Source: Minisyncoccota bacterium (GTDB lineage Bacteria > Patescibacteriota > Minisyncoccia > Phycocordibacterales > JAACPR01). From it: a stretch of 64,000 nt of DNA. Below, piece by piece: positions 3,727 through 19,502 of this stretch. Both the position numbers and the translations under genes were made by a program. The number at the start of each line of letters is the position of its first letter. Position 1 is the stretch's first letter. The stretch covers positions 390,273-454,272 of the forward strand of contig JBAYWG010000001.1 in NCBI GenBank assembly GCA_041674225.1, read 5' to 3'. The notes below the pieces were generated by a model that was given only the letters and a program-made list of their open reading frames with translations, was not told the origin of the DNA and did not search any database.

Positions 3727-3799
3727 CGGGGTGTGGTGTAACGGCTAACATGCTCGCTTTGGGAGCGAGTGACTCCGGGTTCGAATCCCGGCACCCCGA
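3727..3799 (+). tRNA. tRNA-Pro (anticodon TGG), no encoded CCA
   Basis: Acceptor CGGGGTG/CACCCCG, anticodon stem CTCGC/GCGAG with loop TTTGGGA, T-arm CCGGG-TTCGAAT-CCCGG, discriminator A. Confidence 0.85.
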
Positions 3800-3800
3800 C

Positions 3801-4685
3801 ATGAAAAAAATGAAAATAGTAACTCACGCTGGAAGCTTTCATTTGGATGACTTGTTTGCAATAGCAACTATTTCTTTAATTTATCCAGACATTGAGATTG
3901 TGCGTTCGAGAGATAAAAGTGAAGCGGCAAGCGCTGATTTTGTTGTGGATGTAGGAGACGTGAATGATACAGAAAAAAACAGATTTGATCATCATCAACC
4001 AGGTGGGGCAGGGGTTAGAGAAAATGGTGTTCCATATGCAAGCTTTGGTTTAGTTTGGAAAAAATTTGGAACTGAAGTTTCTGGCGGAGATGCTCGTGTA
4101 CAGGATTTGGTTGATAAAAAAATGGTTCAACCAATTGATGCTGCTGATAACGGTTTCAATATGTATCGTGAAACTAAATCAGGACTATCTCCTTATCTTC
4201 TAGACAACGCTTTCAAGGCTCTGACACCTACGTGGCGAGACGAAGGAACTGTAGATGACACTTTCACTAGAATTCTACCTTTAGCTCGAGAAATCTTATT
4301 AATGGAGATCAAAAAAGCTAAATATTTCTTTGAGGATACTGAAATTGTGAAAGAGGCTTATAAAAATGCGCCTGATAAAAGAATTATTGTTTTGGAACAT
4401 CCTTTGGCTTGGAAATCTGTTATCTCTAGAAAAAATGAACCAATTTATGTTATTCATCCAAATCAAATGACAGGGGAGTGGATTGTCGCTTGTGTGCGAA
4501 AGACCCCACGTTCTCATGAAAATAGAAAACTTTTGCCACAAGCGTGGGCAGGAAAAAGAAAAGAAGATTTGGAAAAAATCACGGGTGTAGAAGGTGCAGA
4601 GTCTTGTCATAACAAAAGATTTATCGCAACAGCGTGGAGTAAAGAAGCTGCGGTGAAATTGGCTGAGATTGCTGTGAAGAATTAA
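3801..4685 (+). CDS. MYG1/UPF0160 family metal-dependent hydrolase
   Basis: N-terminal THAGSFHLDD motif. Start placed at the ATG immediately after tRNA-Pro, because the ORF-track start at 3750 lies inside the tRNA. Confidence 0.7.
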   Translation: MKKMKIVTHAGSFHLDDLFAIATISLIYPDIEIVRSRDKSEAASADFVVDVGDVNDTEKNRFDHHQPGGAGVRENGVPYASFGLVWKKFGTEVSGGDARVQDLVDKKMVQPIDAADNGFNMYRETKSGLSPYLLDNAFKALTPTWRDEGTVDDTFTRILPLAREILLMEIKKAKYFFEDTEIVKEAYKNAPDKRIIVLEHPLAWKSVISRKNEPIYVIHPNQMTGEWIVACVRKTPRSHENRKLLPQAWAGKRKEDLEKITGVEGAESCHNKRFIATAWSKEAAVKLAEIAVKN

Positions 4686-4806: not shown

Positions 4807-5910
4807 ATGACAAGCAATACAGTTAAAAATGAGGAGTCGGAACCTCTCAAAATATTTCCGGAGAAGACTCGAGTCGCTATGCCATTTAAACCCAGGCCGG
4901 ATCAAATATTGGTCTTGCTAATGTTGGAAACTGAAGAAGGGAAGATTGTTTTTCCTAATCTCAATTCAGATGACATCACCTACATTGAAAAGGAGAAGGA
5001 TGGAGTTCTGTATCTCAAGGAAAAGGAGTGTTTGTTTGTGGGCTGTGGAAGAGATCCGCGATTCGATCCAAACGCACATCCAAATAATCCTTGGGACTCT
5101 GCATCTTCGATGATGACCAGACATTTGGGATTATTTAAAAAATACCCAATATGGAGGAAAGTCATTGAAGAGGTCCGCAGTGCCTACAGGGGAAGACAGT
5201 TAGAGTCGGGCGAGATTGCTTTGATGGCTGACGCCCTTTATGGTTCTCATGGTGGACTCGTTGGAGATGCTTCGGTTATTCAGTGGGTGAAAACTGCGTA
5301 CGATGCCGAAATTCATTTCGGTGACAAAAAACAGTTGAAACCATTGGATAGATGGGGTGTGCTCGATATTCTCAAACAACAAAATTCTCCGAGTGCTGAG
5401 TGGTTTGAGATGATGATCAGTGAGTGTCAGTCTCATTACGAAAGGAGTAAGAATGATGCGAAGACAGTCTTTGTGGGTCTTGAACCCAAAAAATTCAATC
5501 ACCCGATTCATGGAGAATTGAATCTGTACATCGTTTCGACCGACAATGAGAAGGTGGCATCGTATGCGTGGAAGAATACGGACGCTGATATTCTAGTTGT
5601 TTTGAAGAGCAATGGACAGGTCGCAATTCAAACTAAAAGAGAGAGGCTTTTTGACATGACGGAAGTCTGGCAAAAAATTGTTGAACTTGAACCAAAAGGA
5701 AGAGGCTCTGAATTGTGGGATTTATATTCCGGTCCGAGGATGATTCTCAACGGTTCTCGATCTAATCCCAATACTCCTCCGACGAAGCTTACTCTGGAAG
5801 AAATAGCTGAAATTATTCAGAACGTTCTGACAGGGAAAGAATACCTCGACAGAATGAGGCCGAGTGTTGGAGACATGCTTGAAGCTGCTCTATCTGGGTT
5901 TGGAAGTTAA
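4807..5910 (+). CDS. Hypothetical protein (367 aa)
   Basis: Long uninterrupted ORF, locally GC-richer. No recognisable motif. Confidence 0.5.
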   Translation: MTSNTVKNEESEPLKIFPEKTRVAMPFKPRPDQILVLLMLETEEGKIVFPNLNSDDITYIEKEKDGVLYLKEKECLFVGCGRDPRFDPNAHPNNPWDSASSMMTRHLGLFKKYPIWRKVIEEVRSAYRGRQLESGEIALMADALYGSHGGLVGDASVIQWVKTAYDAEIHFGDKKQLKPLDRWGVLDILKQQNSPSAEWFEMMISECQSHYERSKNDAKTVFVGLEPKKFNHPIHGELNLYIVSTDNEKVASYAWKNTDADILVVLKSNGQVAIQTKRERLFDMTEVWQKIVELEPKGRGSELWDLYSGPRMILNGSRSNPNTPPTKLTLEEIAEIIQNVLTGKEYLDRMRPSVGDMLEAALSGFGS

Positions 5911-7714: not shown

Positions 7715-8467
7715 ATGTTCGAAAAATTCTTAGAAGAATTGGGTCTAAGTGATAAAGAGTCAAAAGTTTATTTAGCATTGTTGGAAGTTGAAAATGATTC
7801 TGTAATCGATTTATCTAAAAAAACAGATATTAACAGAACAACAATTTATCCAGTTTTGGAATCTCTTTCTAAAAAAGGTTTGATTAGTGAAATTAAGGTT
7901 GATAAAAAAGTTCGTTATGCCGCTGAATCTCCTGAGAGATTAGAAACTTATGTTGAAAGAAGAAAAATTCAATTAGAGGAGCAAGAAAGAAAGTTGAAAG
8001 ATATTATTCCGCAGTTGAAGAGTGTGCAGCGGGATAAAGGAGAAAAACCAATCATAAAGTTTTATGATGGTAAGGAAGGAATAATGTCAGCTATAAAAGA
8101 ATATTTTGGACCAAATCCGAAAGGTGGCGATGCTTATTTTTTATATGATTATGATTTAGTTAATGAAATTTTTACCCCACAAGAGATTAAAACTGCCCAA
8201 AATAATAGAAGCCAAGCGAAGATAAATGCATTTTCTTTTTATGCGAGTAAAAACGAGTCACTATCAAACAGTGAGTCATCATCAAGAATTCAAGTTGATG
8301 GTGATAAATATCCAATCTATTGTGATATTGGAGTATATGATGATTATGTAAGAATTCACACTTTAAATAAAAAAGTTTCTGCTATATATATAAAAAACAA
8401 GGATATCGCCGAAACTTTTAAGTCTTTATTTAGAATCGCTTTCGATAATTACAAAAGTAACAAGTAG
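7715..8467 (+). CDS. TrmB-family winged-helix transcriptional regulator
   Basis: N-terminal LSDKESKVYLALLE...TIYPVLESLSKKGLI wHTH typical of the TrmB family. Confidence 0.65.
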   Translation: MFEKFLEELGLSDKESKVYLALLEVENDSVIDLSKKTDINRTTIYPVLESLSKKGLISEIKVDKKVRYAAESPERLETYVERRKIQLEEQERKLKDIIPQLKSVQRDKGEKPIIKFYDGKEGIMSAIKEYFGPNPKGGDAYFLYDYDLVNEIFTPQEIKTAQNNRSQAKINAFSFYASKNESLSNSESSSRIQVDGDKYPIYCDIGVYDDYVRIHTLNKKVSAIYIKNKDIAETFKSLFRIAFDNYKSNK

Positions 8468-8482
8468 TCTAGAAAGAAAAAT

Positions 8483-8518
8483 CTCCCTCGCAGCAAAAGC
8501 TGGAGGGAGTGTTTTTTT
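8483..8518 (+). terminator. Rho-independent terminator
   Basis: CTCCCTC-loop-GAGGGAG hairpin followed by a T7 run. Confidence 0.6.
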
Positions 8519-8959
8519 AAAATTGGACTTATTTAGATATCTCTAAAAATTTGTCCAGAAAACATTTTCAATTTTTAATCTCCAAAGTCGCCCATAATGA
8601 ACTCCTTTCTGTTTTGAAATTTGGTGAACGACCAATTAGTGCTGAATCAACACCCCCACCCGAAACCCTATGCAAGGCTCGGGTGGGGGCGCATCATCTG
8701 CGTGTCTTAGCCGTGCATAGGTCACCTCCTTTCAGTTGAACTATCTGATTGAAATCCTGGTCTAGAAAGACAAGGCAATCAGATTTCTAAGATAGTATAG
8801 CAAATTTTAGATAAATGTCAATACATATAAACAGTTTTGTCTTATATTTCTTTTAAAACACGGCTTATTTATGGTTTTTTTGTTAAAAATGTTTATTTTG
8901 ATTAAATAATTTTCATTGACTTTTAAGTAAAAACGTGATAATATAAGAGAAGAAATTAA

Positions 8960-9062
8960 GTAGCCATAGCCACAAGAGCCTTAATATTAAGACCCTTCTG
9001 GCTATGGCTACCGAGTGGTATATCCGAGCTACACGTCAGTCCATCGTGAAAAACAGGACTCG
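8960..9062 (+). ncRNA. Structured leader element X (copy A): 13-bp hairpin plus conserved GAGUGGUA...GUGAAAAACAGGACUCG tail
   Basis: GTAGCCATAGCCA...TGGCTATGGCTAC perfect hairpin. A paralogous copy at 17794-17895 carries a compensatory C:G to A:U change. Confidence 0.5.
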
Positions 9063-9094
9063 TTCGGCTATCGACAAGAGCCACCAAGTACATT

Positions 9095-9439
9095 ATGAAG
9101 ACATATTTTTCGAACGATTCGAACCCCTCAGTCACTGTTTACTACTGTATCCCTGAGACAGTATTCGAAATAAATTTATTTGGATGTTTCTATATCGCAG
9201 TGGTAAAAAAACCAGAAGGGTTCATATTCTGGTGGGAAAATCCAGACCTGAGTCATCTTGGCCCTGACGATGAACTCCTCGAGGAACACAATCCTAGTGA
9301 ATGTGTTGAGCTTCCTGATGAATTCCTAAGGAAGCTTGAGGAAAAGCTGCGAAATGTTGACCATGTGGACAACCTTTTGTGGGATTCATCTTCGGAACAA
9401 TGGAAAAGCCTTCCGTCTGTTTTGCAGTTTGAAGATTAA
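9095..9439 (+). CDS. Hypothetical acidic protein (114 aa)
   Basis: ORF immediately downstream of element X. Start context AGTACATTATGAA is shared with the next ORF. Confidence 0.4.
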   Translation: MKTYFSNDSNPSVTVYYCIPETVFEINLFGCFYIAVVKKPEGFIFWWENPDLSHLGPDDELLEEHNPSECVELPDEFLRKLEEKLRNVDHVDNLLWDSSSEQWKSLPSVLQFED

Positions 9440-9620
9440 TAGTGGTACTCCACTCGGTTCATAGATTAATACCGTAAAATCTACTTGGAGAACTTCGGTT
9501 CTCCTCTCAACTGAGCTTGCAACAATTTGATAGTTGTAAGTTCACAGAGAGTAAAACGTTCAGACACTCGTTATAAAACAGTCTGTGCAAGTCAAAGCAG
9601 CAATTGACACCTAGTACATT

Positions 9621-10130
9621 ATGAAACCAATTATTGCCTTCTATGAAATGCTCTGCGATCTTATTGAGACCGGAGTGAAAGGAGCTGGTACCGGCAGCTA
9701 TCCTGCAAGGAAGATGGAAATTGATCTTATTAGCTTGTCTGGTAAGGCTCGTGCTTCCAAAAACCCTGTTAGCTGGGTTGGTGCTGACAATGCAAACATC
9801 CTTTCCATGATGTTGCGTTGTATCAACGACAACGAAAACTCAAGCGGCAGACAGTGGGAACTCAGTGTTGAAACTCTGATGATCTCTGCATTCGGAGATC
9901 TGTCCGCCGTTCGTGATACAGAAGCGCTTCAAACTTTCGGACGGTTGAGAAGGGTGTGCTTCATGGACAAGAAAGAACTCTTTCTCTGGAGTCGTAAGAA
10001 AACTGAGAGAGAAGACGGAAGTGCTGTCATTGTGCTGCACGTCAGTGATCTACGAGCTTTTCAGTCTCTGATTCACGTCAGTGGCTCGAAAGGAAACCTC
10101 GAAGATGGTTTGATGATCATCAAGCCTTAA
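9621..10130 (+). CDS. Hypothetical protein (169 aa)
   Basis: ORF downstream of element Y. Protein-like composition. Confidence 0.45.
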   Translation: MKPIIAFYEMLCDLIETGVKGAGTGSYPARKMEIDLISLSGKARASKNPVSWVGADNANILSMMLRCINDNENSSGRQWELSVETLMISAFGDLSAVRDTEALQTFGRLRRVCFMDKKELFLWSRKKTEREDGSAVIVLHVSDLRAFQSLIHVSGSKGNLEDGLMIIKP

Positions 10131-10210
10131 TTGGAAACGCTAAAGGAGAACAGCGTACAACTCCGGCTCTGCATACACTTGCAGAGTCTTTTTATTTTAA
10201 GATATTTAAA

Positions 10211-10241
10211 TAAAAAATAGCCCCTTTTGCAAAGGGCTATT
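10211..10241 (-). terminator. Rho-independent terminator (bidirectional hairpin)
   Basis: TAGCCC-TTTTGCAAA-GGGCTA hairpin flanked by an A-run on the + strand, which is a T-run on the - strand. Confidence 0.55.
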
Positions 10242-10253
10242 AAGTTTAACTTT

Positions 10254-11414
10254 TCAGTTAATCAACCAACTTAACGCCGGTTTCTTGTGGAATATTCTTT
10301 CTGCGATTACCGCATTAGTATATTCTTTGTCTTCGGTGACTTCTTGAATTATCTCTATCCAGTCTGGAATTTGCAATTCATGCTCCAGATTGGTTAGTTC
10401 TATTTCAAGCATCCCAATCTCAACACTCGGATCAGTACTTGTATTGGAGTTTTTGAAGACATCCAGTTCCAAATATTGATTTGCCCAAAGCATACAGTGT
10501 CGAGTTTTGTTTACCGGACATGTGTCTGGTTTAATCATTGAAGACATGAGCTCGAACTCACTTTCTCCGATGATTCTCTCAACTTCGAGTCTTTGGCCTG
10601 GGCCGTGATCGCGTTTTTCAGTCATGAAGTAGGTGTAGAAACCATCGTGACCGCGTTTGCGAATACGGATTTCCGCCTTATCACTTCCTGTTGTTAGATA
10701 AATCTGCTCGATGTCGATTGAGACAGCTTCCTTGGGAATGTTCATTGGATTGAACTTTACTAAGAATTTTCTTTCTCTTTCGACAGGAATCGGCACCCCA
10801 ATAACTGCACAAACTTCTTGATAAACTCGGTGGAGTTTTTCTTGAAAATCGGTACTGTTGTCGACGACTCTCATGTGAGGATGACCAACCCAGGCTTGCT
10901 GAGTTCTCTTATCAAGATCTCTCGCTTGTTGGGGAGTCTCGTGTCTCGCTGAATTGTTTGCCAGAGTGTAGAAATCCTCAGCACCTTCTGCGGCTGTGAC
11001 CATGTGAATGACTGCGTCATATCTCGCATGACTAGCACTCACTGGATTGAGTTCTCTTGTTTGCAGCAGAGACAAGTAGTCTTCTTTTTCCATGTATGCA
11101 CTCCCGTCGGGAATACCACGGTCGTAGATGACTACAATCTTTTGATCTGCTGGAAGATTTTTTGCAATCTCCAAAATGTTATTTTCGATGCTCAAACTTA
11201 TGTTGAGAATCGCATTTTGAAGCATGTCTCCCGAGATTGAATTTTTGCCTGGCATTACTCCAGCGTTGATACATAGGGTCGCCATCTCTGGGATGACAAA
11301 AACCACATGATTTTCAATCTCTTCAATTTTCTCTCTCAAGAAAGAGAGGCCACTAGACTTTCCTCCGCAAGGGCCACCGGTCAGGACTATTCGGTATATG
11401 TTTTTGGGTTGCAT
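10254..11414 (-). CDS. P-loop AAA-type ATPase fused to a C-terminal CYTH (triphosphate tunnel) domain
   Basis: Walker A TGGPCGGKSS at the N-terminus. The C-terminal half starts ERERKFLV and has the alternating acidic/basic strands of CYTH. Confidence 0.65.
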   Translation of the reverse strand: MQPKNIYRIVLTGGPCGGKSSGLSFLREKIEEIENHVVFVIPEMATLCINAGVMPGKNSISGDMLQNAILNISLSIENNILEIAKNLPADQKIVVIYDRGIPDGSAYMEKEDYLSLLQTRELNPVSASHARYDAVIHMVTAAEGAEDFYTLANNSARHETPQQARDLDKRTQQAWVGHPHMRVVDNSTDFQEKLHRVYQEVCAVIGVPIPVERERKFLVKFNPMNIPKEAVSIDIEQIYLTTGSDKAEIRIRKRGHDGFYTYFMTEKRDHGPGQRLEVERIIGESEFELMSSMIKPDTCPVNKTRHCMLWANQYLELDVFKNSNTSTDPSVEIGMLEIELTNLEHELQIPDWIEIIQEVTEDKEYTNAVIAERIFHKKPALSWLIN

Positions 11415-11530
11415 AGATTGGTTTAGTTGGTTGTGAATGAACTGCTACTCTTCACTGATTATGTTTAAAAGGTTCGTTGTTTTCTAGTCTTTCTGCGTTG
11501 AGTCAAATTTTTTAGACTAAAATGTCTAAA

Positions 11531-12202
11531 CTATTCTTCATCAGTTGTATTTAAAAAATATTCTGCAAAAAAGTGATCTTTCTTGTTTTCTTTAACAAGT
11601 TTTAATATCTTTTTCGCTCCAGGTAAAATGTTTTTGCTATCTATTTCATCAAATGTTCCCCAGAAGCATTCTCCAACTGTATTCCCGTCTTCTAATTCTC
11701 CAGTCACTTCTGTTCCAGAGAAGACATGGCAAAGAAGGTGTGTAACTAATTCTGTTTCATCGTGCACAGCAATATAAACATCGCCCCTGTGTTTTAGTTT
11801 TGCAGATAATCCAGATTTTTCTTTCAGTTCTCTTTCTGCCGAATCTTTTATTCTTTCCTCGAGGTGAATTTTCCCATATGGAAAAGAAACAAAATTAATA
11901 AAGGGCGCTCTTTTTTGACGGTAGAGTAAATACTTTCCATCTTTTTCAATTACCATTGATGTAACAATTTTGGGTTGAGTTCTTTCTTCAAATGTATCAA
12001 AAGACATCCTGCTGATTAGGTGTTTTCCTGCAGATGTCAGACTGTATGTTTTATCTTTTGAAATAATCAAACCAAGTTTTGTTAGGGAGTTTAGGTGGTA
12101 CACAAAAACATTTCCCTCGACTTCTTTATCTTTTAGATCTGAGTAACGGATCTTTTTCTGTAGAGAAAGTTTTTTAAGGATGTCTTTTTGAATTTCGTGC
12201 AT
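11531..12202 (-). CDS. Winged-helix + Nudix hydrolase domain protein
   Basis: Nudix box GKIHLEERIKDSAERELKEKSG, N-terminal HTH-like segment. Confidence 0.7.
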   Translation of the reverse strand: MHEIQKDILKKLSLQKKIRYSDLKDKEVEGNVFVYHLNSLTKLGLIISKDKTYSLTSAGKHLISRMSFDTFEERTQPKIVTSMVIEKDGKYLLYRQKRAPFINFVSFPYGKIHLEERIKDSAERELKEKSGLSAKLKHRGDVYIAVHDETELVTHLLCHVFSGTEVTGELEDGNTVGECFWGTFDEIDSKNILPGAKKILKLVKENKKDHFFAEYFLNTTDEE

Positions 12203-12348
12203 GGTGAAATATTAACATATAACAAATTAATTCTAAAAACTCACGATTTTGTATTATAAATAAAGATCATTTTGGCAAAGTTTGTGTGTAACAATTTAAT
12301 ACGGATTCTGTAATTAATTATTATTTTTGAGGGTTATTTGATACAATC

Positions 12349-13086
12349 TTGTTAATTATGAAAAATAAAATACTTGAGCAGATTGGTTTATCAAAGAATG
12401 AGAGTGAGATTTATTTAGCACTTTTAGATTTAGGACCTTCAAGTATTTCAAAAATCTCTGAGAAAACCGCCATCCACCGACCACTTATTTATAAAGCACT
12501 ACCTGAACTTTTGGAGAAAAAATTGGTTAGCCAAACTCAGAAAGGGAAAAATGTGCTTTATGTGGCGGAACCACCAAATAGATTAGAATCAATTTTTGAT
12601 GAATTAAAATATCAATTCTTTGAACTTTTACCTGATCTAGAAGACTCATACTCAAGCAACAATAAAAAACCGAAAATTAGATTTTTGGAAGGGAAGGATG
12701 GAACTAAAAGAGTTTTTGATGATGTTGTGAGAAGTTTGAATAAAGGAGATACTTTTTATAGATACACTTCAAACAAAGATGGAAAAGAGAAAAAAGATCG
12801 ATATGTTCCGAGAATTTATTGGACTATGCGTGACGCTAAAAAATTGGAGAGGCAAGTGATCACAAACGAGAAGACTGCAAAAGCAAAAATAGAAAAAATT
12901 GATAGATTTGTGAAAGGAATGCCAGAAGATTTTGGACCTTTTGAACACAACATTACAGAAATTATTTATGGAGACAGAGTTTCTTTTATAGACTACAACT
13001 CAGACACCGCGATGATTATTGAAAGCAAACCGATTGCTGAGTTTCAAAAACATATCTTCAAGACATTTTATAAGAAGTTAAGTTAA
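12349..13086 (+). CDS. TrmB-family transcriptional regulator (paralog of 7715-8467)
   Basis: LSKNESEIYLALLDLGPSSISKIS...LIYKALPELLEKKLV wHTH. Similar length and architecture to the first TrmB-like gene. Confidence 0.6.
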   Translation: MLIMKNKILEQIGLSKNESEIYLALLDLGPSSISKISEKTAIHRPLIYKALPELLEKKLVSQTQKGKNVLYVAEPPNRLESIFDELKYQFFELLPDLEDSYSSNNKKPKIRFLEGKDGTKRVFDDVVRSLNKGDTFYRYTSNKDGKEKKDRYVPRIYWTMRDAKKLERQVITNEKTAKAKIEKIDRFVKGMPEDFGPFEHNITEIIYGDRVSFIDYNSDTAMIIESKPIAEFQKHIFKTFYKKLS

Positions 13087-14436
13087 TTACTCGTGCCACC
13101 TTCGTTCTGCTCGAATTGGTGCATCTGCAACTAGTTTTATGCGAAGGTCTGAAGGAAGAAAATCAAGGGTGAATGATCTTCCTTCGATTACAATCTTGCT
13201 TTCAGAAGTGTCTCGGATTTTTGATATTTCCCTAGCTGAAAATTCTATAACTTCTTTCTGATATTTTTTTGCGATGTCAGGGATTTTATTTTCAACCCTG
13301 CTTTCTCGGAGTGCTTGTCCGTAAACTTTTTTGATATCTAGATTCGTGTGAAAGAGTCTTAATTCTCCTGATGTGCTCTTGTAGTACATGTTTTTGAAGA
13401 TATTTTTTGTGAATTTTATTTTTGCTAGGTTTAGTAAAGTGAGGTATCTGAAAATGTCTCCCATTGAGAAGATTTTTGCGTTTAGTTTTTTTGCCAATTC
13501 TTTTGTGGTTGAGCTTTTTCCGACTCCACTTTTTCCTTCTAGAGAAATTATTTTGGTCTCCTTTTTTATGTCAGTCTCGATTATTTTGATAACATTTTTT
13601 ATTCCAATTACTTTTCCTGTATCTACTGTGATTGTTTTCTTAGGTTTTTGTATTCTCAATCCTTTGTTTGAAAGATTTTCTTTATTTACTTTATCTATCT
13701 GATCATCTCTGTGATCTCTTTCAATTATTGAATGTAGTATTTCACTTACCCCATGTGATTTTATTCTATGAGTTATTTTCTCTTTTCCTATTTCTGAGAC
13801 CACGCAATCTTTTATTATTGTATTCAGTTCAGCTGTTTTAAATTCCGAGAAGTATTTGTCACCAAAATCTCCGAGACCAGGAACTATATAACCTTTTTCG
13901 TCTAAACATTTATCTAGTTGTCCGATTATTATTTTAACTTTTGGATAAAGAGTTAAGATTTTATTTACTCCCTCTGGTGAGGCTAAGATGTTTGCTACGA
14001 CTATTTTTTCTTCTGCGACATTTTTCTTTAAACATCTTTCGATTGCGTCGATAATAGTGTTTCCAGTTGCTAACATGGGATCAACTATGATGACAAAGTT
14101 GTTTTTGTTTATTTTTCCCTCTTCAAAATCAACCTCTGTTTCTAGTGTTTCCTCGTTTCGCTTTGAGCTTAGGTGGTAATAATTTTTTATTTTAAATTTC
14201 TTTAGGCTCGGGATAAAAGCGAGTGCAGATCTCCAGGGAAGAATAACGACCGTGTTATTTTTTTCTATATGATTTAAAGATTCTTTAATTATTTTGTCTG
14301 TAATTATTTCAGAATTTTCTCTAAAGATTTTTCCTTTGGTTTGTTCATGAAAAGATTTGTTGGGATATCCGGCTCTTAAAATTTTAAATGCGGTGTTGAA
14401 TTTTTTATCTGGAGTTACTATTTTTATTTTCTTCAT
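13087..14436 (-). CDS. Uracil phosphoribosyltransferase fused to cytidylate kinase
   Basis: N-terminal half has DPMLATGNT and YIVPGLGDFGDKYF (UPRT). C-terminal half has P-loop ISLEGKSGVGKSS and cmk-like sequence. Confidence 0.75.
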   Translation of the reverse strand: MKKIKIVTPDKKFNTAFKILRAGYPNKSFHEQTKGKIFRENSEIITDKIIKESLNHIEKNNTVVILPWRSALAFIPSLKKFKIKNYYHLSSKRNEETLETEVDFEEGKINKNNFVIIVDPMLATGNTIIDAIERCLKKNVAEEKIVVANILASPEGVNKILTLYPKVKIIIGQLDKCLDEKGYIVPGLGDFGDKYFSEFKTAELNTIIKDCVVSEIGKEKITHRIKSHGVSEILHSIIERDHRDDQIDKVNKENLSNKGLRIQKPKKTITVDTGKVIGIKNVIKIIETDIKKETKIISLEGKSGVGKSSTTKELAKKLNAKIFSMGDIFRYLTLLNLAKIKFTKNIFKNMYYKSTSGELRLFHTNLDIKKVYGQALRESRVENKIPDIAKKYQKEVIEFSAREISKIRDTSESKIVIEGRSFTLDFLPSDLRIKLVADAPIRAERRWHE

Positions 14437-14460
14437 TTAATTTTATTATAGTTTATTTTT

Positions 14461-14512
14461 TCCGTTTCGTCCTTTTGGACTCATCAGGCAAAGAACTTAC
14501 CTTGCGACAGTG
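14461..14512 (-). ncRNA. Hammerhead ribozyme, type III (HHR-1)
   Basis: Minus-strand read: CACUGUC|GCAAGG-UAAGUU-CUUUGC (stem I) CUGAUGAG UCC-AAAA-GGA (stem II) CGAAAC GGA. Full catalytic core, GUC cleavage triplet. Confidence 0.8.
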
Positions 14513-14581
14513 GACGGATGGAACGTGCATCCGTCAATTTGTTTCAGTTTCAGGAAGTTTTTTCTCCCTAGTGCGCCTCGA

Positions 14582-14962
14582 TTAGCCGTGGCCGATGACC
14601 GGGACGCGACCGATCTCCTCTCTCTCCTCTTGGGCTCGTTGCCTTTCGCGGGCTTCTTCGTGGCCGAAAGAGCGGAGATAACTTTCGTCATGCTCTCGCT
14701 GCTCTTGCTCGTAGGATGCCCGAAGCGGTGTTCGGATCAAGGATGAGAGTTCGTCTCTGACCTCTTTGGGCCATGATTTCCTGATCCGCAGGAGGTCGCC
14801 GATGAATCTCTCAGCGTCATTGATATCGAGGTGTCCTCGCATCATTCGGCAGAGGTCTTCGGAGGTGTTTGGGTGTTGTCTGTTGGTCGGCATGGGTCGT
14901 TTGGGGCGTGGAGTTGGTGGGGACTGTTTCGTCTTGCTTCTACACTTGTAGAAGAGACTCAT
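14582..14962 (-). CDS. Hypothetical small charged protein between two hammerhead ribozymes (coding status uncertain)
   Basis: 126-aa ORF. Its 5' end overlaps HHR-2, so the true start is probably an internal Met. Confidence 0.3.
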   Translation of the reverse strand: MSLFYKCRSKTKQSPPTPRPKRPMPTNRQHPNTSEDLCRMMRGHLDINDAERFIGDLLRIRKSWPKEVRDELSSLIRTPLRASYEQEQREHDESYLRSFGHEEARERQRAQEEREEIGRVPVIGHG

Positions 14963-14990
14963 CAGGCGAGATACTTATCTCGCGACAGAA
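14921..14990 (-). ncRNA. Hammerhead ribozyme, type III (HHR-2)
   Basis: Minus-strand read: UUCUGUC|GCGAGAU-AAGU-AUCUCGC CUGAUGAG UCU-CUUCUAC-AAGU-GUAGAAG-CA-AGA CGAAAC AGUCC. Stem III is CUG/CAG. Confidence 0.8.
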
Positions 14991-15036
14991 GACGGATGGA
15001 ACGTTCATCCGTCAATTTGGTTCAGTTTCAGGAAGT

Positions 15037-15360
15037 TTATTCTTCCTCTGCGCCGGTGCGAATGTACCCTCTTCGCTCGAGTTCCTTCAGGCAGATATGC
15101 ATTTCCCTCGGACTACCTGCTTGAAACAGGACTCGCATTTGTTTGCGGGTTAGTCGGGCAGGGTTTGCTAGATTTGCTTCCGCTCTTTTCATTAGGCGAT
15201 TGAAGGCTTTCTCGCAAGCTGGCGGTGCGTGGCGGTCTTTGGCCTTTGGTGGTTCGGTTTGCTCGCGCATCTTGGCTTTTTGTGCGGAGATTATGCCGTT
15301 GTAGCGTGGTACGCAGGTGCAGGATGTGGTCATGGGTAGTTTGGGGTTTGGGGTTAACAA
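15037..15360 (-). CDS. Hypothetical small protein, possible HTH at C-terminus (coding status uncertain)
   Basis: 107-aa ORF upstream of HHR-2 on the minus strand. Confidence 0.3.
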   Translation of the reverse strand: MLTPNPKLPMTTSCTCVPRYNGIISAQKAKMREQTEPPKAKDRHAPPACEKAFNRLMKRAEANLANPARLTRKQMRVLFQAGSPREMHICLKELERRGYIRTGAEEE

Positions 15361-15747
15361 AGAACAAATTTATTTTTTTGTAAATTGTAAGGTCTAATCC
15401 AACATATTTATAGTCTAGTCAAATTGAGTCAATTGTTTTTATCAGAAGTGGTATTTTTATGTGCAGGGGGTTCAGGCAATATTATAAGTAAAGTATTTGA
15501 AAATATTTTTTATTTATGGTCAATGTGTACAGAGATGGGAGCGAGGTGAATTTAGTGGCTTTAAATATAGCTATTATTTGATTTTTCAGTGTAATTTTTA
15601 GTTTCAAAAAAACTTTTTTATACAACTTTTTTAAAAAAGTAGCAAAAAAATATAAATTCTGTCTAAAATTTGAAACATTATAAAAATGTAAATATGGCTT
15701 AAAATATGATAAAAAATGATATCTAAAATTAGAAACGACAAAAACGC

Positions 15748-15776
15748 TTGACAAAAAATGAAAATGGGTATATACT
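15748..15776 (+). promoter_or_regulatory. Consensus sigma70-type promoter (TTGACA-17 nt-TATACT)
   Basis: Perfect -35 TTGACA at 15748-15753, 17-nt spacer, -10 TATACT at 15771-15776, in an AT-rich region with upstream direct repeats. Confidence 0.6.
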
Positions 15777-15837
15777 ACTTTCAAACCTAAAACAAGCACA
15801 CAACATTCAACAACCAGCCAATAGAAAGGAGGAGGGC

Positions 15838-15888
15838 ATGATTTACCAAATCTACCCCGATGGGACCATTGTGGTCGTCCGCCGATAG
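15838..15888 (+). CDS. Candidate 16-aa leader peptide (MIYQIYPDGTIVVVRR)
   Basis: ATG 5 nt downstream of the strong SD AAGGAGGAGGG, about 55 nt from the predicted TSS. Stop TAG. Confidence 0.3.
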   Translation: MIYQIYPDGTIVVVRR

Positions 15889-16342
15889 GCCGGAATAGTG
15901 GGTTCGTTCAAACCGAATCTGCTCCCTTAAAATAAGATCTTCCACACGGTCTTATTTTAAGGTAGCGGAAGTTACCTAGTTCTTTAAAAGATAAAAGATA
16001 GCCTGCACCTTAATCAGAGTATTGCTAGTACTTTGATTAAGGCGCAGGACATTAACAGTTGTTTGGCGGCCTAAAAATAGGGAAACAAAGTTTCCCCTTT
16101 CGGCTGATCACCGATTGAACTACCCAGGAGGTTTGTGTCATGTTTGAACACGAGCAAGAAAGGTGGAGGAAGATGTTCACAATTTAAAGAACATCTGGAA
16201 GGTTGGTAACCGTAAACTGTTGTGGTGCATGTAAGGGTGCCACGATTGTCCTTTGGACAATCAAAAGTCAATGCCTAATCAATATTAGGTACACACGTCT
16301 ACACGAAGTGATGGAATGCTTAACCAGCTCCATGCACTTCGT

Positions 16343-16396
16343 CCTGTCGCGAGATGCATGTCTCGCCTGATGAGTCCAAAAGGACGAAACAGTTGC
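16343..16396 (+). ncRNA. Hammerhead ribozyme, type III (HHR-3)
   Basis: CCUGUC|GCGAGA-UGCAUG-UCUCGC CUGAUGAG UCC-AAAA-GGA CGAAAC AGUUGC. Shares stem I with HHR-2 and stem II with HHR-1. Confidence 0.85.
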
Positions 16397-16524
16397 ATTT
16401 TTAAAATATAAAATCTTTGTACTGCATTCCGTGTTCAATTCTTTTGGAAGATAAACACCACTCAATTTAATGTGGCCCCCAAAATTGGACACAGTGCTCG
16501 GTATAAAGATTTATACCAACAGTT

Positions 16525-16540
16525 CTTTAAATAAAAATAA
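16525..16540 (+). repeat. 16-nt direct repeat CTTTAAATAAAAATAA (copy 1 of 3)
   Basis: Exact 16-mer, also present at 17307 and 17776. Confidence 0.7.
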
Positions 16541-17252
16541 TCATTTTCTTGGAACTCCGCAGTCACAAAATTGAAACTAAAATTTGGTTTTAATTTTGTG
16601 GCTGTGGAGGGCCCGATAGACTCGCAAGAGTTGATAGGATAGTTGCCAAAAGACAATTACTATCCGGGTGTGTAAAAACATCTAAATCTCCATCTTGAAA
16701 CTAGTGTGCTCCGGGAGGGGTATCCAAACATTAGTGTAGAGAGCTGTAGAAGTCTGCAAACTTCGAAAGCAGTTAGAAGCGTTCAGGGCTGCAACCCAAA
16801 AACGTGGAAAGCCAAGTGTGCATCAGGCACGGCTCGCAAGGCTGTGTGCAGTGCACCCCTCTTTCTTGGCATGTCTTACAACTATATAAAGTTGCTAACG
16901 GCATAAAGAGGGAAATCAATCATCGTAGGGCTGTGCCACAATACCAGAGAATTGGGAAAACTCTGGGTGAAAAGTGGAAGAGGAACGCCACCTCAAATGG
17001 AAAAAGCCCCGGCCAGGGAAATATCCAAGAAGATGATTGAGGATAAAGGGTGCGCACACACCCTAAAACAATTCGGTGAGATTCCGAAATGTGTGGTCAA
17101 AAGACAGCTACCGTTAGCAGCGGTGGTCGGCTCGCAAGAGTATTGCTGTCATTGAGAGTATGTGAGCTTCGGCTTCTGACCTTTGTACTCTCTCCCAAAT
17201 TTTTCGGTTCGGAACTAGGTTCAACCGGGTTGTAAGTTATCCAAAAACTTTC

Positions 17253-17302
17253 TCTGTCTCGAAATGTAATTTCGACTGATGAGCTCAAAAGAGCGAAACA
17301 GA
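17253..17302 (+). ncRNA. Hammerhead ribozyme, type III (HHR-4)
   Basis: UCUGUC|UCGAAAU-GUA-AUUUCGA CUGAUGAG CUC-AAAA-GAG CGAAAC AGA. Stem III is UCUG/CAGA. Confidence 0.85.
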
Positions 17303-17306
17303 TGAT

Positions 17307-17322
17307 CTTTAAATAAAAATAA
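17307..17322 (+). repeat. 16-nt direct repeat CTTTAAATAAAAATAA (copy 2 of 3)
   Basis: Exact copy, immediately 3' of HHR-4. Confidence 0.7.
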
Positions 17323-17775
17323 ATTCTCTGCACCGAATTGCATTTAAGTTTTTTAAATTCAGTTCGGTGCAGGGAGTTGTTGCGACCCCATAGTACGTGA
17401 GTCAAAGAGGGATAAATGATACCCTCGCGAAAAGATCAGCTGCAACATGCTAAAAGAGCTTAGGAATTTATGCTCGATCGAAAAATTTCCAATCATATGA
17501 CCAAGGTCGAAAGACGCTGTTACATCTCCCAGAAGAGATGGTGCGACGAGGCAATCTAGAACGCCTTTTCAATCGCATTACCTAATGCCCTTCAACCGGC
17601 GGTTTATATTACTCGAGATTAGATCTCTTGCGGATATAGATTGGTTAACAAACGACAGGTTAGGTATCTCGTGTTGAATCGGGACATCATCGCAACAATT
17701 TTTCGCACTTTTTCAAAAAAAGTGCACTTCATTGAGCTTACGAAATTTGATATTCGCAAGTTCATAGAGTTTGTA

Positions 17776-17791
17776 CTTTAAATAAAAATAA
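17776..17791 (+). repeat. 16-nt direct repeat CTTTAAATAAAAATAA (copy 3 of 3)
   Basis: Exact copy, immediately 5' of element X copy B. Confidence 0.7.
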
Positions 17792-17793
17792 AA

Positions 17794-17895
17794 GTAGACA
17801 TAGCCAAAGGAATTTTTAAATAGAATTTCTTTGGCTATGTCTACTGAGTGGTAGATGAGCTGCACATTGGTCCGTTTGTGAAAAACAAGGACTCG
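17794..17895 (+). ncRNA. Structured leader element X (copy B)
   Basis: GTAGACATAGCCA...TGGCTATGTCTAC hairpin plus UGAGUGGUAGAU...GUGAAAAACAAGGACUCG. Paralog of 8960-9062. Confidence 0.5.
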
Positions 17896-17924
17896 TCTGA
17901 CGAACGTATCGTCACCCCAGACTT

Positions 17925-18245
17925 ATGAGCAAGCACCACTATCGTAAACCTGCTGCTAAACCTGTGTGTCCTTGCGGACATGCTACGACCGATGCTCTCT
18001 GGGTGTTAGACATCCAAGGAGACCGACCTATCAGGGTTCATCGGCCATGCGGTCAGGCGATCTTGAAGAACGCGCCGAAAGGAACGCAGGGCAAAATTCG
18101 TCCTTCCCGCGAGCTCAAAGAGATTCACAAGAAGCAGAGGTACGAGCGCGAGCTCTCCTCCAGTTTCTGGAACTCCAAGCTTGAAGGTGTCAAAGGCAAG
18201 TCTTTACAAGACTTGGTGAAGACCGCTCCCGACAGGCAGTCCTGA
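17925..18245 (+). CDS. Hypothetical basic Cys-containing protein (106 aa)
   Basis: ORF directly after element X. CPCGH...PCGQ suggests a small zinc-binding fold. Confidence 0.4.
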   Translation: MSKHHYRKPAAKPVCPCGHATTDALWVLDIQGDRPIRVHRPCGQAILKNAPKGTQGKIRPSRELKEIHKKQRYERELSSSFWNSKLEGVKGKSLQDLVKTAPDRQS

Positions 18246-18381
18246 TGGATTGGTTGAAACAAGTTTCTCTAGCTCTTTTCCTTTCAAAAAAGAGTCGCAC
18301 TGTCAGCGGATAATAATCAACCCCGCTAGACTAAGAGTTTGCAGATTTCTTAAATCTGCACTTACTTGAGCTTGCAACAAG

Positions 18382-18780
18382 ATGTTGTTGGTTCATAGAG
18401 TGTTAGTTCTTTCAAAAACAAAACAAAAAAATATGATCATCTCAAATGCATTTTCACTCAACATGTTTGAAACCCTCGAAGGAGAAATTCTCAGCAGAGA
18501 GCTTAGTGTCACGGAAATCTCGAAAGAGCAGGCTGTTGAACTTTTAACAGACCCTGAGCTTGGAGGAGTAGATTCAGCTGTTGGACATGCCGACACTGCT
18601 GCGCTTTTTTCTACGATTCTCGGAATCGAGATCCCGTGTGAGCGCAAGACGATTCAACTCAACCCTGAAAATGGTTGGCTTATTGTCGGGCAGTATCATG
18701 GACCACGTCTTGAAGAAGGAAGTACTACACTTCCGGAGGGTGCCAGTATTCGCTGGTACGAAATCGAGATTAAGTCTTGA
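18382..18780 (+). CDS. Hypothetical protein (132 aa; may start at internal Met 18439)
   Basis: ORF downstream of element Y copy B. Confidence 0.45.
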   Translation: MLLVHRVLVLSKTKQKNMIISNAFSLNMFETLEGEILSRELSVTEISKEQAVELLTDPELGGVDSAVGHADTAALFSTILGIEIPCERKTIQLNPENGWLIVGQYHGPRLEEGSTTLPEGASIRWYEIEIKS

Positions 18781-18789
18781 GAGATTATT

Positions 18790-19077
18790 ATGAATTTGGA
18801 AGAAATTTCAAAGCTCTATGATGATCCTCAAGATGCAATGAGGATTTTACAAACATCTGTTGAAGGAAAACACAGATATTTCCGAAACGAGAAAGCTTTC
18901 GAAAGGTTTCTGAGAAAAGAACAAGACTCATATCAGCGTCGCAAGACTGCTGGTGTTTCAAGTCCGGTTTCACTTCTTGAGAATACTCTCGACTCTTCTC
19001 CTTTAAGGAACGAAACTTTGCCCCCGGGCAGTAATGGTTTCAATGTGATTATCTGGCAGGAAACTTCCAAAGGATAA
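18790..19077 (+). CDS. Hypothetical protein (95 aa)
   Basis: ORF tightly following the previous one (10-nt gap), followed by a terminator. Confidence 0.45.
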   Translation: MNLEEISKLYDDPQDAMRILQTSVEGKHRYFRNEKAFERFLRKEQDSYQRRKTAGVSSPVSLLENTLDSSPLRNETLPPGSNGFNVIIWQETSKG

Positions 19078-19085
19078 TCATTGAA

Positions 19086-19112
19086 CCCTGCAATAAAATG
19101 TAGGGTTTTTTC
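19086..19112 (+). terminator. Rho-independent terminator
   Basis: CCCUGCA-AUAAAA-UGUAGGG hairpin followed by a T6-7 run, 9 nt after the ORF stop. Confidence 0.55.
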
Positions 19113-19127
19113 TTTAAATTTATACAA

Positions 19128-19158
19128 AGCAAAAAGCCGGCGGAGCCGGCTTTTTGCT
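19128..19158. terminator. Bidirectional Rho-independent terminator
   Basis: GCAAAAAGCCGGC-GGA-GCCGGCTTTTTGC, a perfect hairpin with A/T runs on both sides. It lies downstream of hup on the minus strand. Confidence 0.7.
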
Positions 19159-19229
19159 TATTTACTTAAAATTCTGTGAAGATAAATTTAATAACTTAAA
19201 ATTTAACCGTTTTGAACTTGTACGTATAT

Positions 19230-19502
19230 TTATTTAACAGCTTCTTTCAAAGCTTTTGCAGCTCTAAACTTTGGAGTTTTCATAGCTGGAACTTTGATAG
19301 CTTCACCTGTTCTTGGGTTTCTAGCTGTTCGGGCTGCTCGTGTTTTAGCTTCAAAAATACCGAATCCTGCAACTGAAACTTCTTCTCCAGATGTTAAAGA
19401 TTTGATAATTGAATCAAAAACAGCGTCAACAACCTTTTCTGCTTCTACCTTTGTTGTACCTAATACTTCATGTACCTTTTCTACAATGGCTGCTTTATTC
19501 AT
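19230..19502 (-). CDS. hup: DNA-binding protein HU
   Basis: 90 aa. MNKAAIVEKV...GFGIFEAKTRAARTARNPRTGEAIKVPA matches the HU/IHF fold signature. Confidence 0.9.
   Translation of the reverse strand: MNKAAIVEKVHEVLGTTKVEAEKVVDAVFDSIIKSLTSGEEVSVAGFGIFEAKTRAARTARNPRTGEAIKVPAMKTPKFRAAKALKEAVK

Follow-up and report, generated by a model that had tools for sequence, protein, structure and literature searches.

A covariation-supported RNA motif that shares the slot of hammerhead ribozymes between gene cassettes of Patescibacteria and may punctuate their transcripts

A 64,000-nt stretch of a Minisyncoccota bacterium (contig JBAYWG010000001.1, positions 390,273 to 454,272; the whole stretch is called the window here) contains three copies of a short RNA element with two hairpins, termed Y, located in two islands of small genes, A and B. 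Y is an undescribed RNA motif supported by covariation, a member of no described family among those tested, and Y and hammerhead ribozymes are interchangeable separators between cassette units. From the sequences we tentatively favor a role of Y as a processing hairpin recognized by an RNase III-like nuclease, which would punctuate the cassette transcripts of mobile islands in bacteria of the candidate phyla radiation (CPR).

Y is a two-hairpin RNA motif with covarying helices

The core pattern GAGCTTN{10,30}GTTCAYAGAG was matched three times in the window, always on the + strand (9513-9549, 17734-17769 and 18368-18400), with 0.00 matches expected by chance and none found in 100 dinucleotide-preserving shuffles. 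Exactly these copies (Y-A, Y-C and Y-B, respectively) were recovered by later covariance models run over the whole window with filters off, and the second-generation model, R2, detected no further copy there. Models R1 and R2 gave Y-A scores of 80.3 and 69.7 bits, respectively. A preliminary description of this DNA had proposed a motif common to both islands; the motif is present in both and its similarity is beyond chance, but the third copy (17734-17769) had been missed, and the spans had to be corrected, in A to 9510-9551 (from 9519-9552, a start off by 9) and in B to 18364-18402 (off by 1). The CAACAA/UUGUUG hairpin reported there exists, but it was drawn too small: the GAGCUU...AAGUUC stretch pairs throughout (10-13 bp), and two further helices, P1 and P2, accompany it.

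Y is read in the order P1, P2, J5′, P3 and J3′ (Table 1). P1, of 7-12 bp, is present in every homologue, with a stem length and a sequence that differ in each. No nucleotide separates it from P2, a 4-bp helix (5′ WCUY / 3′ GAGW). J5′ has 4 nt of the form N-A-Y-U and J3′ the form A-Y-A, and the first five pairs of P3 are conserved as GAGCU / RGUUC (G-C, A-U, G.U, C-G, and U-A or U.G), its upper part varying freely. The U preceding P3 is able to pair with the first A of J3′, after which R.A and Y.Y mismatches and one bulged base remain; P2, the mismatches and P3 amount to 18-20 stacked positions, and a longer helix would be obtained only by stacking of P1 across a nick. The loops of P1 and P3 range from UUCG up to 11 nt (UUCG, CUU, CA and ACACCAUA among those of P1; AAUUUGAUA, AGA, AAAA and GUU among those of P3). 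P1 together with P2/P3 was the minimum-free-energy structure in all 10 versions that were folded (z from -3.2 to -8.0; -5.45 for Y-A), and the stability of the hairpins is -21 to -38 kcal/mol.

Relatives of Y were found through the genomic contexts of homologues of ORF2-A, the second open reading frame (ORF) of island A, through two scans with strict patterns, one of metagenomes and one of genomes, and through model searches of the loci fetched. The resulting alignment holds 14 distinct versions (winA, winB and winC from the window, L121a, L127, L128, L131, L134a, L134b, L140, L144, L161, L134v1 and L134v2). In this alignment 96.4% of the pair cells are standard pairs, versus 34-46% in slid registers, both sides have changed in 10 of the 16 pairs, and the observed pairing and compensation values were reached by none of 500 shuffles. 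P2 covaries (U-A to A-U at one pair, and C-G/U-A to U-A/C-G in diverged copies), and the conserved P3 pairs also do so in L161 and in the L134 variants. At P3 positions 1 to 4, G-C is found in 12, A-U in 14, G.U in 13 and C-G in 12 of the 14 versions. Two diverged L134 versions (2820-2898 and 4480-4556) carry P1 as well. L140 and L144 are an orthologous pair, located 3′ of the same uppS-linked gene of 168 aa, in which the core is kept and P1 and the upper and inner parts of P3 have been fully replaced, with compensation.

The other genomes with Y are all metagenome-assembled genomes of CPR/Patescibacteria, namely Paceibacterota (with an identical A-type copy), Staskawiczbacteria and one labeled Saccharibacteria. 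When cmscan was run with all 4227 Rfam 15 models (E<=5-10) over 8400-19400, 17690-18440, L131 and L128, no family matched Y at E up to 10, and on all the relevant regions permissive thresholds gave only hairpin noise (microRNA models) at Y or at the leader, X, described below. In IMG/VR a loose Y pattern gave more than 120 matches, all of them chance or coding and devoid of the hairpin and P1. The strict pattern gave three, which were pattern-driven and scored low (12-17 bits), so that Y is not seen in viral contigs, and the X pseudoknot pattern gave zero matches there. From the metagenome and genome scans L129, L130, L133, L135-L139, L141-L143, L145-L147, L149-L152 and L154-L158 were discarded as chance, because of weak folds, an absent P1 or a position within coding sequence of unrelated taxa. 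Literature searches found no published description of hammerheads or similar motifs in CPR bacteria.

Y and hammerheads exchange in one slot

The main clue to the role of Y, overlooked by the preliminary description, is the presence of four hammerheads in the window (Table 1). Their cores are complete (CUGAUGA...GAAA in HH1), though their scores (35-44 bits) lie below the Rfam gathering score of 48.5, so that standard annotation would miss them. In each of them a variable hairpin abuts a short stem III (3-5 bp); the same arrangement is found in every hammerhead of the loci compared here, as P1 abuts P2 in Y.

Three independent lines of evidence point to one slot for both elements. Within the window, an identical CTTTAAATAAAAATAAA box with a long hairpin (repeat family D1, CTTTAAATAAAAATAA) begins 4-7 nt past both HH2 and Y-C, the latter closing a non-coding unit (about 17722-17776). 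Among homologous modules, which have in common the promoter and X leader as well as an ORF2 of one family with its pseudoknot leader, the slot holds P1 and Y in winA, L121, L127 and L131, and a hammerhead in L160 (46.7 bits) and L162 (41.5 bits). Both occupants are present in the array of L161, which runs from a leader and ORF0 to P1 plus Y (56.2 bits with R2), an AU box with long hairpin and leader, and ORF1, and continues with a hammerhead (45.6 bits), a further AU box with long hairpin and leader, and ORF2. In L163, L167, L170 and L171 a hammerhead-like CUGAYGA...GAAA was read by eye in the Y slot, and these loci count as weaker evidence for the exchange. In its 5′ part the L167 spacer shows homology to positions 9441-9486 of the window, and its middle is hammerhead-like, hence only the middle piece has been exchanged. 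The hammerhead-like element of L163 (about 4845-4922) has two extra GCAA-capped hairpins between CUGACGA and stem II, and may be an unusual or inactive variant.

All copies of Y have the sense orientation and close a unit on its 3′ side. That unit may be the first of two ORFs (winA, winB, L121 twice, L127, L128 and L131), a non-coding structured unit (winC; L134 4934-4988) or a single gene, as in L140, where Y is 12 nt ahead of a terminator, and L144, where it is 25 nt ahead of the next gene. The L134 island has four Y-type elements, one per cistron, each 3′ of its cistron. The order X-ORF1-Y-ORF2 put forward in the preliminary description is thus seen in A and B, in both of which Y does separate ORF1 from ORF2 of its own module, but Y is not bound to it (winC, L134, L140 and L144 differ), and the cassette unit is better described as a leader with its ORF, followed by a separator.

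Leaders and exchangeable open reading frames

One leader type precedes every cassette ORF (9030-9094, 9553-9620 and 17860-17924 in the window), and it was seen in 25 leaders of L121, L127, L131, L160-L163, L165, L167, L170 and L171. It is composed of an H-type pseudoknot (AACG/CGUU or CACG/CGUG) with a covarying second stem of 4-5 nt and an A-rich third loop, UURAAACA, and of a hairpin with the loop (A)ACGACA, which is followed 8-12 nt later by an AUG without a Shine-Dalgarno sequence. In the leader of ORF1-A (X-A) the pseudoknot is formed by CACG 9032-35 / CGUG 9045-48 and GUCC 9039-42 / GGAC 9056-59, and in the leader of ORF2-A by AACG 9555-58 / CGUU 9569-72 and AGAC 9562-65 / GUCU 9581-84. 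The second stem covaries among leaders (GUCC/GGAC, AUCC/GGAU, ACUC/GAGU, AGAC/GUCU). The ORF2-A leader is homologous to the leaders found 3′ of the hammerheads in L160, L162, L167, L170 and L171. No Rfam model matched the cassette leader, which may be a translation-control or ligand-sensing element.

The ORFs between these RNA parts are exchanged precisely. The two modules of L121 combine a nearly identical promoter, X leader and 190-nt Y spacer with an unrelated ORF1 and ORF2. The proteins encoded in the ORF1 slot differ among the window, L127, L121a, L121b, L128 and L131, and in all these loci conservation switches on sharply at the stop codon and off at the start codon. ORF1 families also turn up in new combinations: the ORF1 of L127 matches that of L161, the ORF1 of L121b that of L167, and the ORF2 of L121b the ORF1 of L162. 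The preliminary description noted no obvious similarity between the cargo proteins of A and B; BLASTP detected none at E<=1e-3, and the proteins are taken as unrelated. As stated there, both ORFs of island A begin in the context AGTACATTATGAA (repeat family D15). Its picture of a conserved RNA scaffold with swapped cargo is right in substance, and related modules were found in L121, L127, L128 and L131. Its view of A and B as paralogous modules holds for the RNA parts, but not for the ORFs.

ORF2-A and its homologues make up a family of some 45 small proteins (~160 aa; P0001-P0045); the AlphaFold model of ORF2-A (pLDDT 91) had zero PDB matches at E<=0.001. The family combines a helical bundle with a small beta sheet, with F91, D93, R130, G133, S134 and H140 invariant, and as the constant partner of a variable ORF1 it is reminiscent of toxin/immunity or defense pairs. 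Pfam searches with the window A and B cargo proteins gave a single match, STIV_B116-like for ORF2-B, and in a search with 30 cargo and neighbor proteins the cargo proteins were orphans. The STIV_B116-like family (PF08960) is known from archaeal viruses, and ORF2-B is found in a CPR bacterial island. Near the modules lie a serine recombinase and a Fic gene (L160, 4596-6596), NYN and Zeta-toxin genes (L161, 2769-4469) and a phage integrase (on the JGI contig of P0015), neighborhoods that are consistent with mobile or defense islands.

Genomic setting and transcription units

The window is a low-GC segment (about 0.33) of a bacterial chromosome, in which the islands with Y reach a G+C content of 0.42-0.45, and its genes include those for RNase Y (19660-21171), HU, ClpP, CCA-adding enzyme and TrmB-type regulators. 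Module A (8916-10188) has a promoter and a terminator of its own, and this promoter is conserved in L121, L127, L160 and L162. Upstream of HH1, HH2, Y-C, X-B and Y-B the only promoter is the one at 15748-15776. Given this single strong promoter and no terminator until 19083, the region 15748-19108 looks like one transcription unit, which would comprise HH1, HH2, Y-C, leader X-B, ORF1-B, Y-B, ORF2-B and ORF3-B. Long ORFs are absent from 14450-17900, where the four hammerheads lie.

Table 1. Positions of Y, of the hammerheads and of associated features in the window
Feature	Position	Strand	Description	Score
Y-A, helix P1	9487-9504	+	hairpin GGAGAAC-UUCG-GUUCUCC, directly abutting P2 (zero nt between); read from the sequence	
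Y-A, core	9505-9550	+	P2 5′ strand UCUC, J5′ AACU, P3, J3′ ACA, P2 3′ strand GAGA	
Y-A, P3 hairpin	9513-9543	+	GAGCUUGCAAC...GUUGUAAGUUC	
Y-C	17705-17770	+	P1 17705-17725, P2 ACUU/GAGU, J5′ CAUU, P3 17734-17763, J3′ AUA	61.1 bits
Y-B	18341-18401	+	P1 18341-18359, P2 ACUU/GAGU, J5′ ACUU, P3 18368-18394, J3′ AUA; between ORF1-B and ORF2-B	58.9 bits
HH1	16341-16395	+	type III hammerhead, upstream hairpin abutting	Hammerhead_3 (Rfam) 40.4 bits, E = 4.4e-6
HH2	17251-17304	+	hammerhead just upstream of AU box and long hairpin, same slot as Y-C	Hammerhead_3 43.7 bits, E = 5.1e-7
Hammerhead	14459-14513	-	3′ of small GC-rich ORF	Hammerhead_3 35.0 bits, E = 1.5e-4
Hammerhead, long stem II	14921-14991	-	3′ of second small minus-strand ORF	Hammerhead_3 35.2 bits, E = 1.3e-4
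Leader X-A	8960-9094	+	long hairpin 8960-9011, H-type pseudoknot, hairpin GGCU...AGCC, AUG without Shine-Dalgarno	
ORF2-A leader	9553-9620	+	3′ of Y-A; same pseudoknot type and hairpin	
Leader X-B	17793-17924	+	long hairpin and pseudoknot, ahead of ORF1-B	
Cargo ORF1-A	9095-9439	+	114 aa, orphan, variable slot	
ORF2-A	9621-10130	+	169 aa, usual second gene of modules	
Cargo ORF1-B	17925-18245	+	106 aa, orphan	
Cargo ORF2-B	18433-18780	+	STIV_B116-like (PF08960)	
Cargo ORF3-B	18790-19077	+		
Module A promoter	8916-8944	+	sigma-70-type, TTGACT-17-TAATAT	
Module A intrinsic terminator	10165-10188	+		
Strong promoter	15748-15776	+	sigma-70-type, TTGACA-17-TATACT	11/12 matches
Module B intrinsic terminator	19083-19108	+	past last module B gene; next + strand terminator-like site after promoter 15748	
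AU box, copy 1	16526-16540	+	TTTAAATAAAAATAA, then long hairpin opening next unit	
AU box, copy 2	17308-17322	+	4 nt past HH2	
AU box, copy 3	17777-17791	+	7 nt past Y-C, then X-B long hairpin	

Comparison with described RNA elements

A CUGANGA ... GAAA core with its NUH triplet was found in none of the 14 versions of Y, and the Rfam Hammerhead models matched the four hammerheads of the window and not Y. An assignment as a hammerhead was rejected, there being no third helix at the junction and P1 standing beside the P2-loop-P3 hairpin, and since Y lacks blocks C and G the permuted hammerhead (block orders S, C, G; PMC10085705) was rejected too. Like the clustered prophage hammerheads (Perreault et al. 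2011, PMC3088659), Y lies between small, variable, mostly orphan genes of one long transcript, and it shares with them the variable hairpin that abuts the closing helix; in L160, L161, L162 and at HH1 and HH2 of the window the slot truly holds a hammerhead. Unlike them, Y has neither the core nor a three-way junction but two hairpins that are nearly all helical, and self-cleavage would be hypothetical. Pistol and the pseudoknot-type hammerhead (PMC11300833) have, like Y, a 5′ hairpin and then a helix closing off an internal loop with another hairpin. Y was rejected as a pistol: the linker is missing, no six-base-pair pseudoknot joins the loop of P1 to the internal loop, the P1 loops are unconserved (e.g. 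UUCG) and J5′ has 4 nt; the Rfam Pistol model did not match Y at E<=10. The TS-like minimal ribozyme (PMC11620745) was also discarded, since its loop sizes and sequence are unlike those of Y. No twister, twister-sister, hatchet, hairpin, HDV-like or glmS element was reported at Y by cmscan with the whole Rfam set at E<=5-10 over the regions named above.

In domain V of group II introns the base of the helix carries a G.U wobble and an AGC (or CGC) triad, and the U6 RNA has an ACAGAGA box. The base of P3, G-C, A-U, G.U and C-G (GAGC...GUUC), resembles the AGC-triad end of domain V, and the strand that follows P3 in copy A reads ACAGAGA (window 9513-9552), as in the U6 box, other copies reading AUAGAGU. 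Y was nevertheless rejected as a domain V: a two-nucleotide bulge is missing (at most a 1x1 mismatch is seen), as are a GNRA loop, domain VI and the remaining domains of the intron, and no Intron_gpII or group-II-D1D4 match was found at Y in the Rfam scans. The likeness would be a resemblance only.

The PeSL elements of T4-type phages and the attC sites of integrons are short conserved non-coding modules that bracket small orphan ORFs swapped between genomes. Y and X likewise are conserved non-coding modules around exchangeable small orphan ORFs; unlike PeSL and attC, they are transcribed RNA structures with covarying G.U pairs and without attC R boxes, and Y contains no promoter. Y does not qualify as an intrinsic terminator either, since the terminator scan reported sites at 10165 and 19083 and none at Y, and the tails of Y are A-rich (e.g. 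GAGAGUAAAA).

Possible function of Y

In the reading that we tentatively prefer, a long primary transcript would be divided into units, with either a hammerhead or Y at each boundary, and Y, like the hammerhead, would be a site where the transcript is cut. In prophage transcripts several hammerheads often flank single genes, which has been read as processing to gene-length mRNAs (PMC3088659), and twister and later ribozyme classes were discovered through a gene context shared with hammerheads (PMC6765202). With these precedents and the slot that is shared with hammerheads, Y most likely marks a cleavage point. P1 would stay on the 3′ end of the upstream product and protect it, a role that fits the hairpin abutting the closing helix in both hammerheads and Y, and the downstream unit would begin with its own long hairpin and leader. 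The part that is recognized and cleaved would be the irregular P2-loop-P3 hairpin, which holds the conserved GAGCU/RGUUC and CUY/GAG base pairs, the G.U wobble and the R.A / Y.Y mismatches. Since this hairpin is almost wholly helical, a host endonuclease specific for double strands (RNase III-like) is a likelier agent than the RNA itself. At the RNase III sites in the early mRNA of phage T7 (R1.1 type), an asymmetric internal loop separates the two helices of an irregular hairpin. These sites recur between cistrons, have sequence in common among the copies and leave a protective hairpin on the upstream product. By analogy, Y would resemble them in the form of the hairpin, in its intercistronic repetition, in the sequence shared among copies and in the proposed protective hairpin; unlike them, its lower helix has 4 bp and needs stacking on P1, and its hosts are CPR bacteria, not enterobacteria.

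Several points weigh against an RNase III-like processing site. Sequence comparison shows how Y is built and conserved, where it lies and that it alternates with hammerheads, and from this we infer the cleavage, its position and its agent. RNase III sites span about two helical turns of double-stranded RNA, which may be irregular. P2 has only 4 bp, so an RNase III-type substrate would require coaxial stacking of P1 on P2 across a nick, and RNase III does not normally require a sequence conservation as strong as that of P2 and the base of P3. No conserved island-encoded nuclease was found beside Y in the Pfam scans, the cargo genes being orphans. Four of the seven hammerhead spacers (L163, L167, L170 and L171) are irregular, with non-canonical positions 10.1-11.1, and were not reported by Rfam at E<=1. 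Finally, the patterns used to retrieve most copies of Y fix the conserved bases, which makes its apparent conservation partly an effect of ascertainment; L134a, L134v1, L134v2 and L161 were found independently of such patterns.

Rather unlikely, though it accounts for the shared slot directly, is that Y is a new class of small self-cleaving ribozyme, which would cut the transcript without protein as the hammerhead does in the sister cassettes. P2, the internal loop and the basal part of P3 would make up its active site, which would include the U that invariably precedes P3, the A-Y-A strand and the G.U wobble. Y takes the place of the hammerhead in homologous spacers and arrays, the kind of context that exposed twister and later classes (PMC6765202), and two-stem ribozymes of 31-35 nt with an internal loop exist (PMC11620745). 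Y is also self-contained, L140 and L144 being P1, P2 and P3 alone, and its conservation across CPR lineages and mobile islands without a conserved partner protein favors independence from any island-encoded protein. In addition, the G.U at P3 position 3 and the adjacent A-U are kept (13/14 and 14/14). The internal loop, however, speaks against catalysis: few unpaired nucleotides are conserved, in L134a and L134b the loop can close as Watson-Crick pairs with one bulged U remaining, and J5′ and J3′ are altered in the diverged L134v1 and L134v2 (UGUG/CUA). Moreover, neither a loop nor a pseudoknot is conserved that could make tertiary contacts, and no known ribozyme model matches Y. It is doubtful that Y is a ~45-nt ribozyme class with an accessory hairpin, so far found in CPR/Patescibacteria only, that has replaced hammerheads between units. 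Y might also remain uncut, which we regard as improbable, and act as a structural boundary or protein-binding element, by blocking 3′ exonucleases, insulating the folding of leaders, uncoupling the translation of cistrons or binding a conserved host protein. The two stable hairpins after stop codons (directly before a terminator in L140) fit such an element, sequence-conserved helices are typical of protein-binding sites, and cleavage may fall instead in the downstream AU-rich box, an RNase Y gene being present in the window. With an uncut Y, however, there is no explanation for a self-cleaving ribozyme being the other element found in the slot, and plain stabilizer hairpins need no P2 and P3-base sequence, or wobble, conserved across lineages.

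In two further explanations Y would act at the DNA level or be a product of decay. As a site of cassette recombination, folded as a single strand in the manner of attC or forming a palindrome of the REP type, Y would explain the swapped ORFs; its palindrome is imperfect, conserved at the base, variable at the top and with some bases bulged, precisely exchanged small orphan ORFs have Y at their 3′ end, and a serine recombinase or integrase is near some loci. This is nonetheless very unlikely, as the B and C copies and most homologues lack the R boxes of attC (RYYYAAC / GTTRRRY) and read CACUU.../...GAGUG without AAC/GTTRRR, and no integron integrase adjoins Y among the ORFs scanned beside the window copies. 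In addition, the G.U that is kept (13/14 at one position, with many U.G elsewhere) pairs in RNA and not on the complementary DNA strand, the orientation always follows transcription, and what fills the slot in place of Y is an RNA enzyme. The topology of Y, an abutting hairpin, closing helix, hairpin, short strand and closing helix, is that of a type III hammerhead minus stem II, and Y might thus be a neutral relic that has lost stem II and most of the core. This is scarcely credible, since CUGANGA and GAAA are entirely gone, and the sequence that Y has of its own is kept at distant loci with compensatory changes, which indicates selection and not decay.

Only about a dozen classes of self-cleaving ribozymes are known, and several were found through a genomic context shared with hammerheads. 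The evidence for Y is stronger than neighborhood alone: a hammerhead stands in the Y slot of homologous spacers and arrays, and Y can be put to a cleavage assay cheaply and directly. Should the cutter be a host nuclease, an undescribed RNA motif has still been defined, together with a modular system of leader, ORF and separator with exchangeable orphan genes, in the CPR bacteria; the RNA biology and the mobile elements of this large group have hardly been explored. Synthetic operons could also make use of the separators and leaders as compact insulators.

Other structured regions of the islands

The AU box is present in three exact copies within 1.3 kb, all on the + strand, each followed by a hairpin of 20-25 bp that opens a unit. 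The promoter scan detected no promoter at these three boxes, so a promoter role is unsupported; they may be a site for an RNase (RNase Y?) or a spacer. Similar boxes (a hairpin plus CUUUAAAUAG) lie ahead of ORFs in L134 and L161. On the minus strand, 14459-15360 contains two paralogous GC-rich small ORFs (~100 aa, without Pfam match), which are syntenic in L127. Each is followed by an 87%-identical block with the hairpin GACGGAUG..CAUCCGUC and a hammerhead; that at 14459-14513 lies in a repeat 87% identical to 14956-15047 (family D2), and its syntenic copy in L127 scored 44.4 bits.

Past the near-consensus promoter, 15785-17700 (+) is a region of ~1.9 kb without a long ORF, divided into units by hammerheads and Y. 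Its richness in GNRA-type loops (e.g. GGCUCGCAAGAG, three times) suggests large structured RNAs of a possibly novel type, for which no Rfam match was found. Mini-ORFs with strong Shine-Dalgarno sites (MIYQIYPDGTIVVVRR; MFEHEQERWRKMFTI) are found at 15838-15888 and 16141-16188 (+) of the window, in L140 (10817-10940) and in L144 (about 3790-3860, minus strand), and a YPDG-IVV-R stretch, which may be kept as a peptide or as an RNA structure, is common to the first of them (15838-15888) and to the leader region of the L140/L144 gene.

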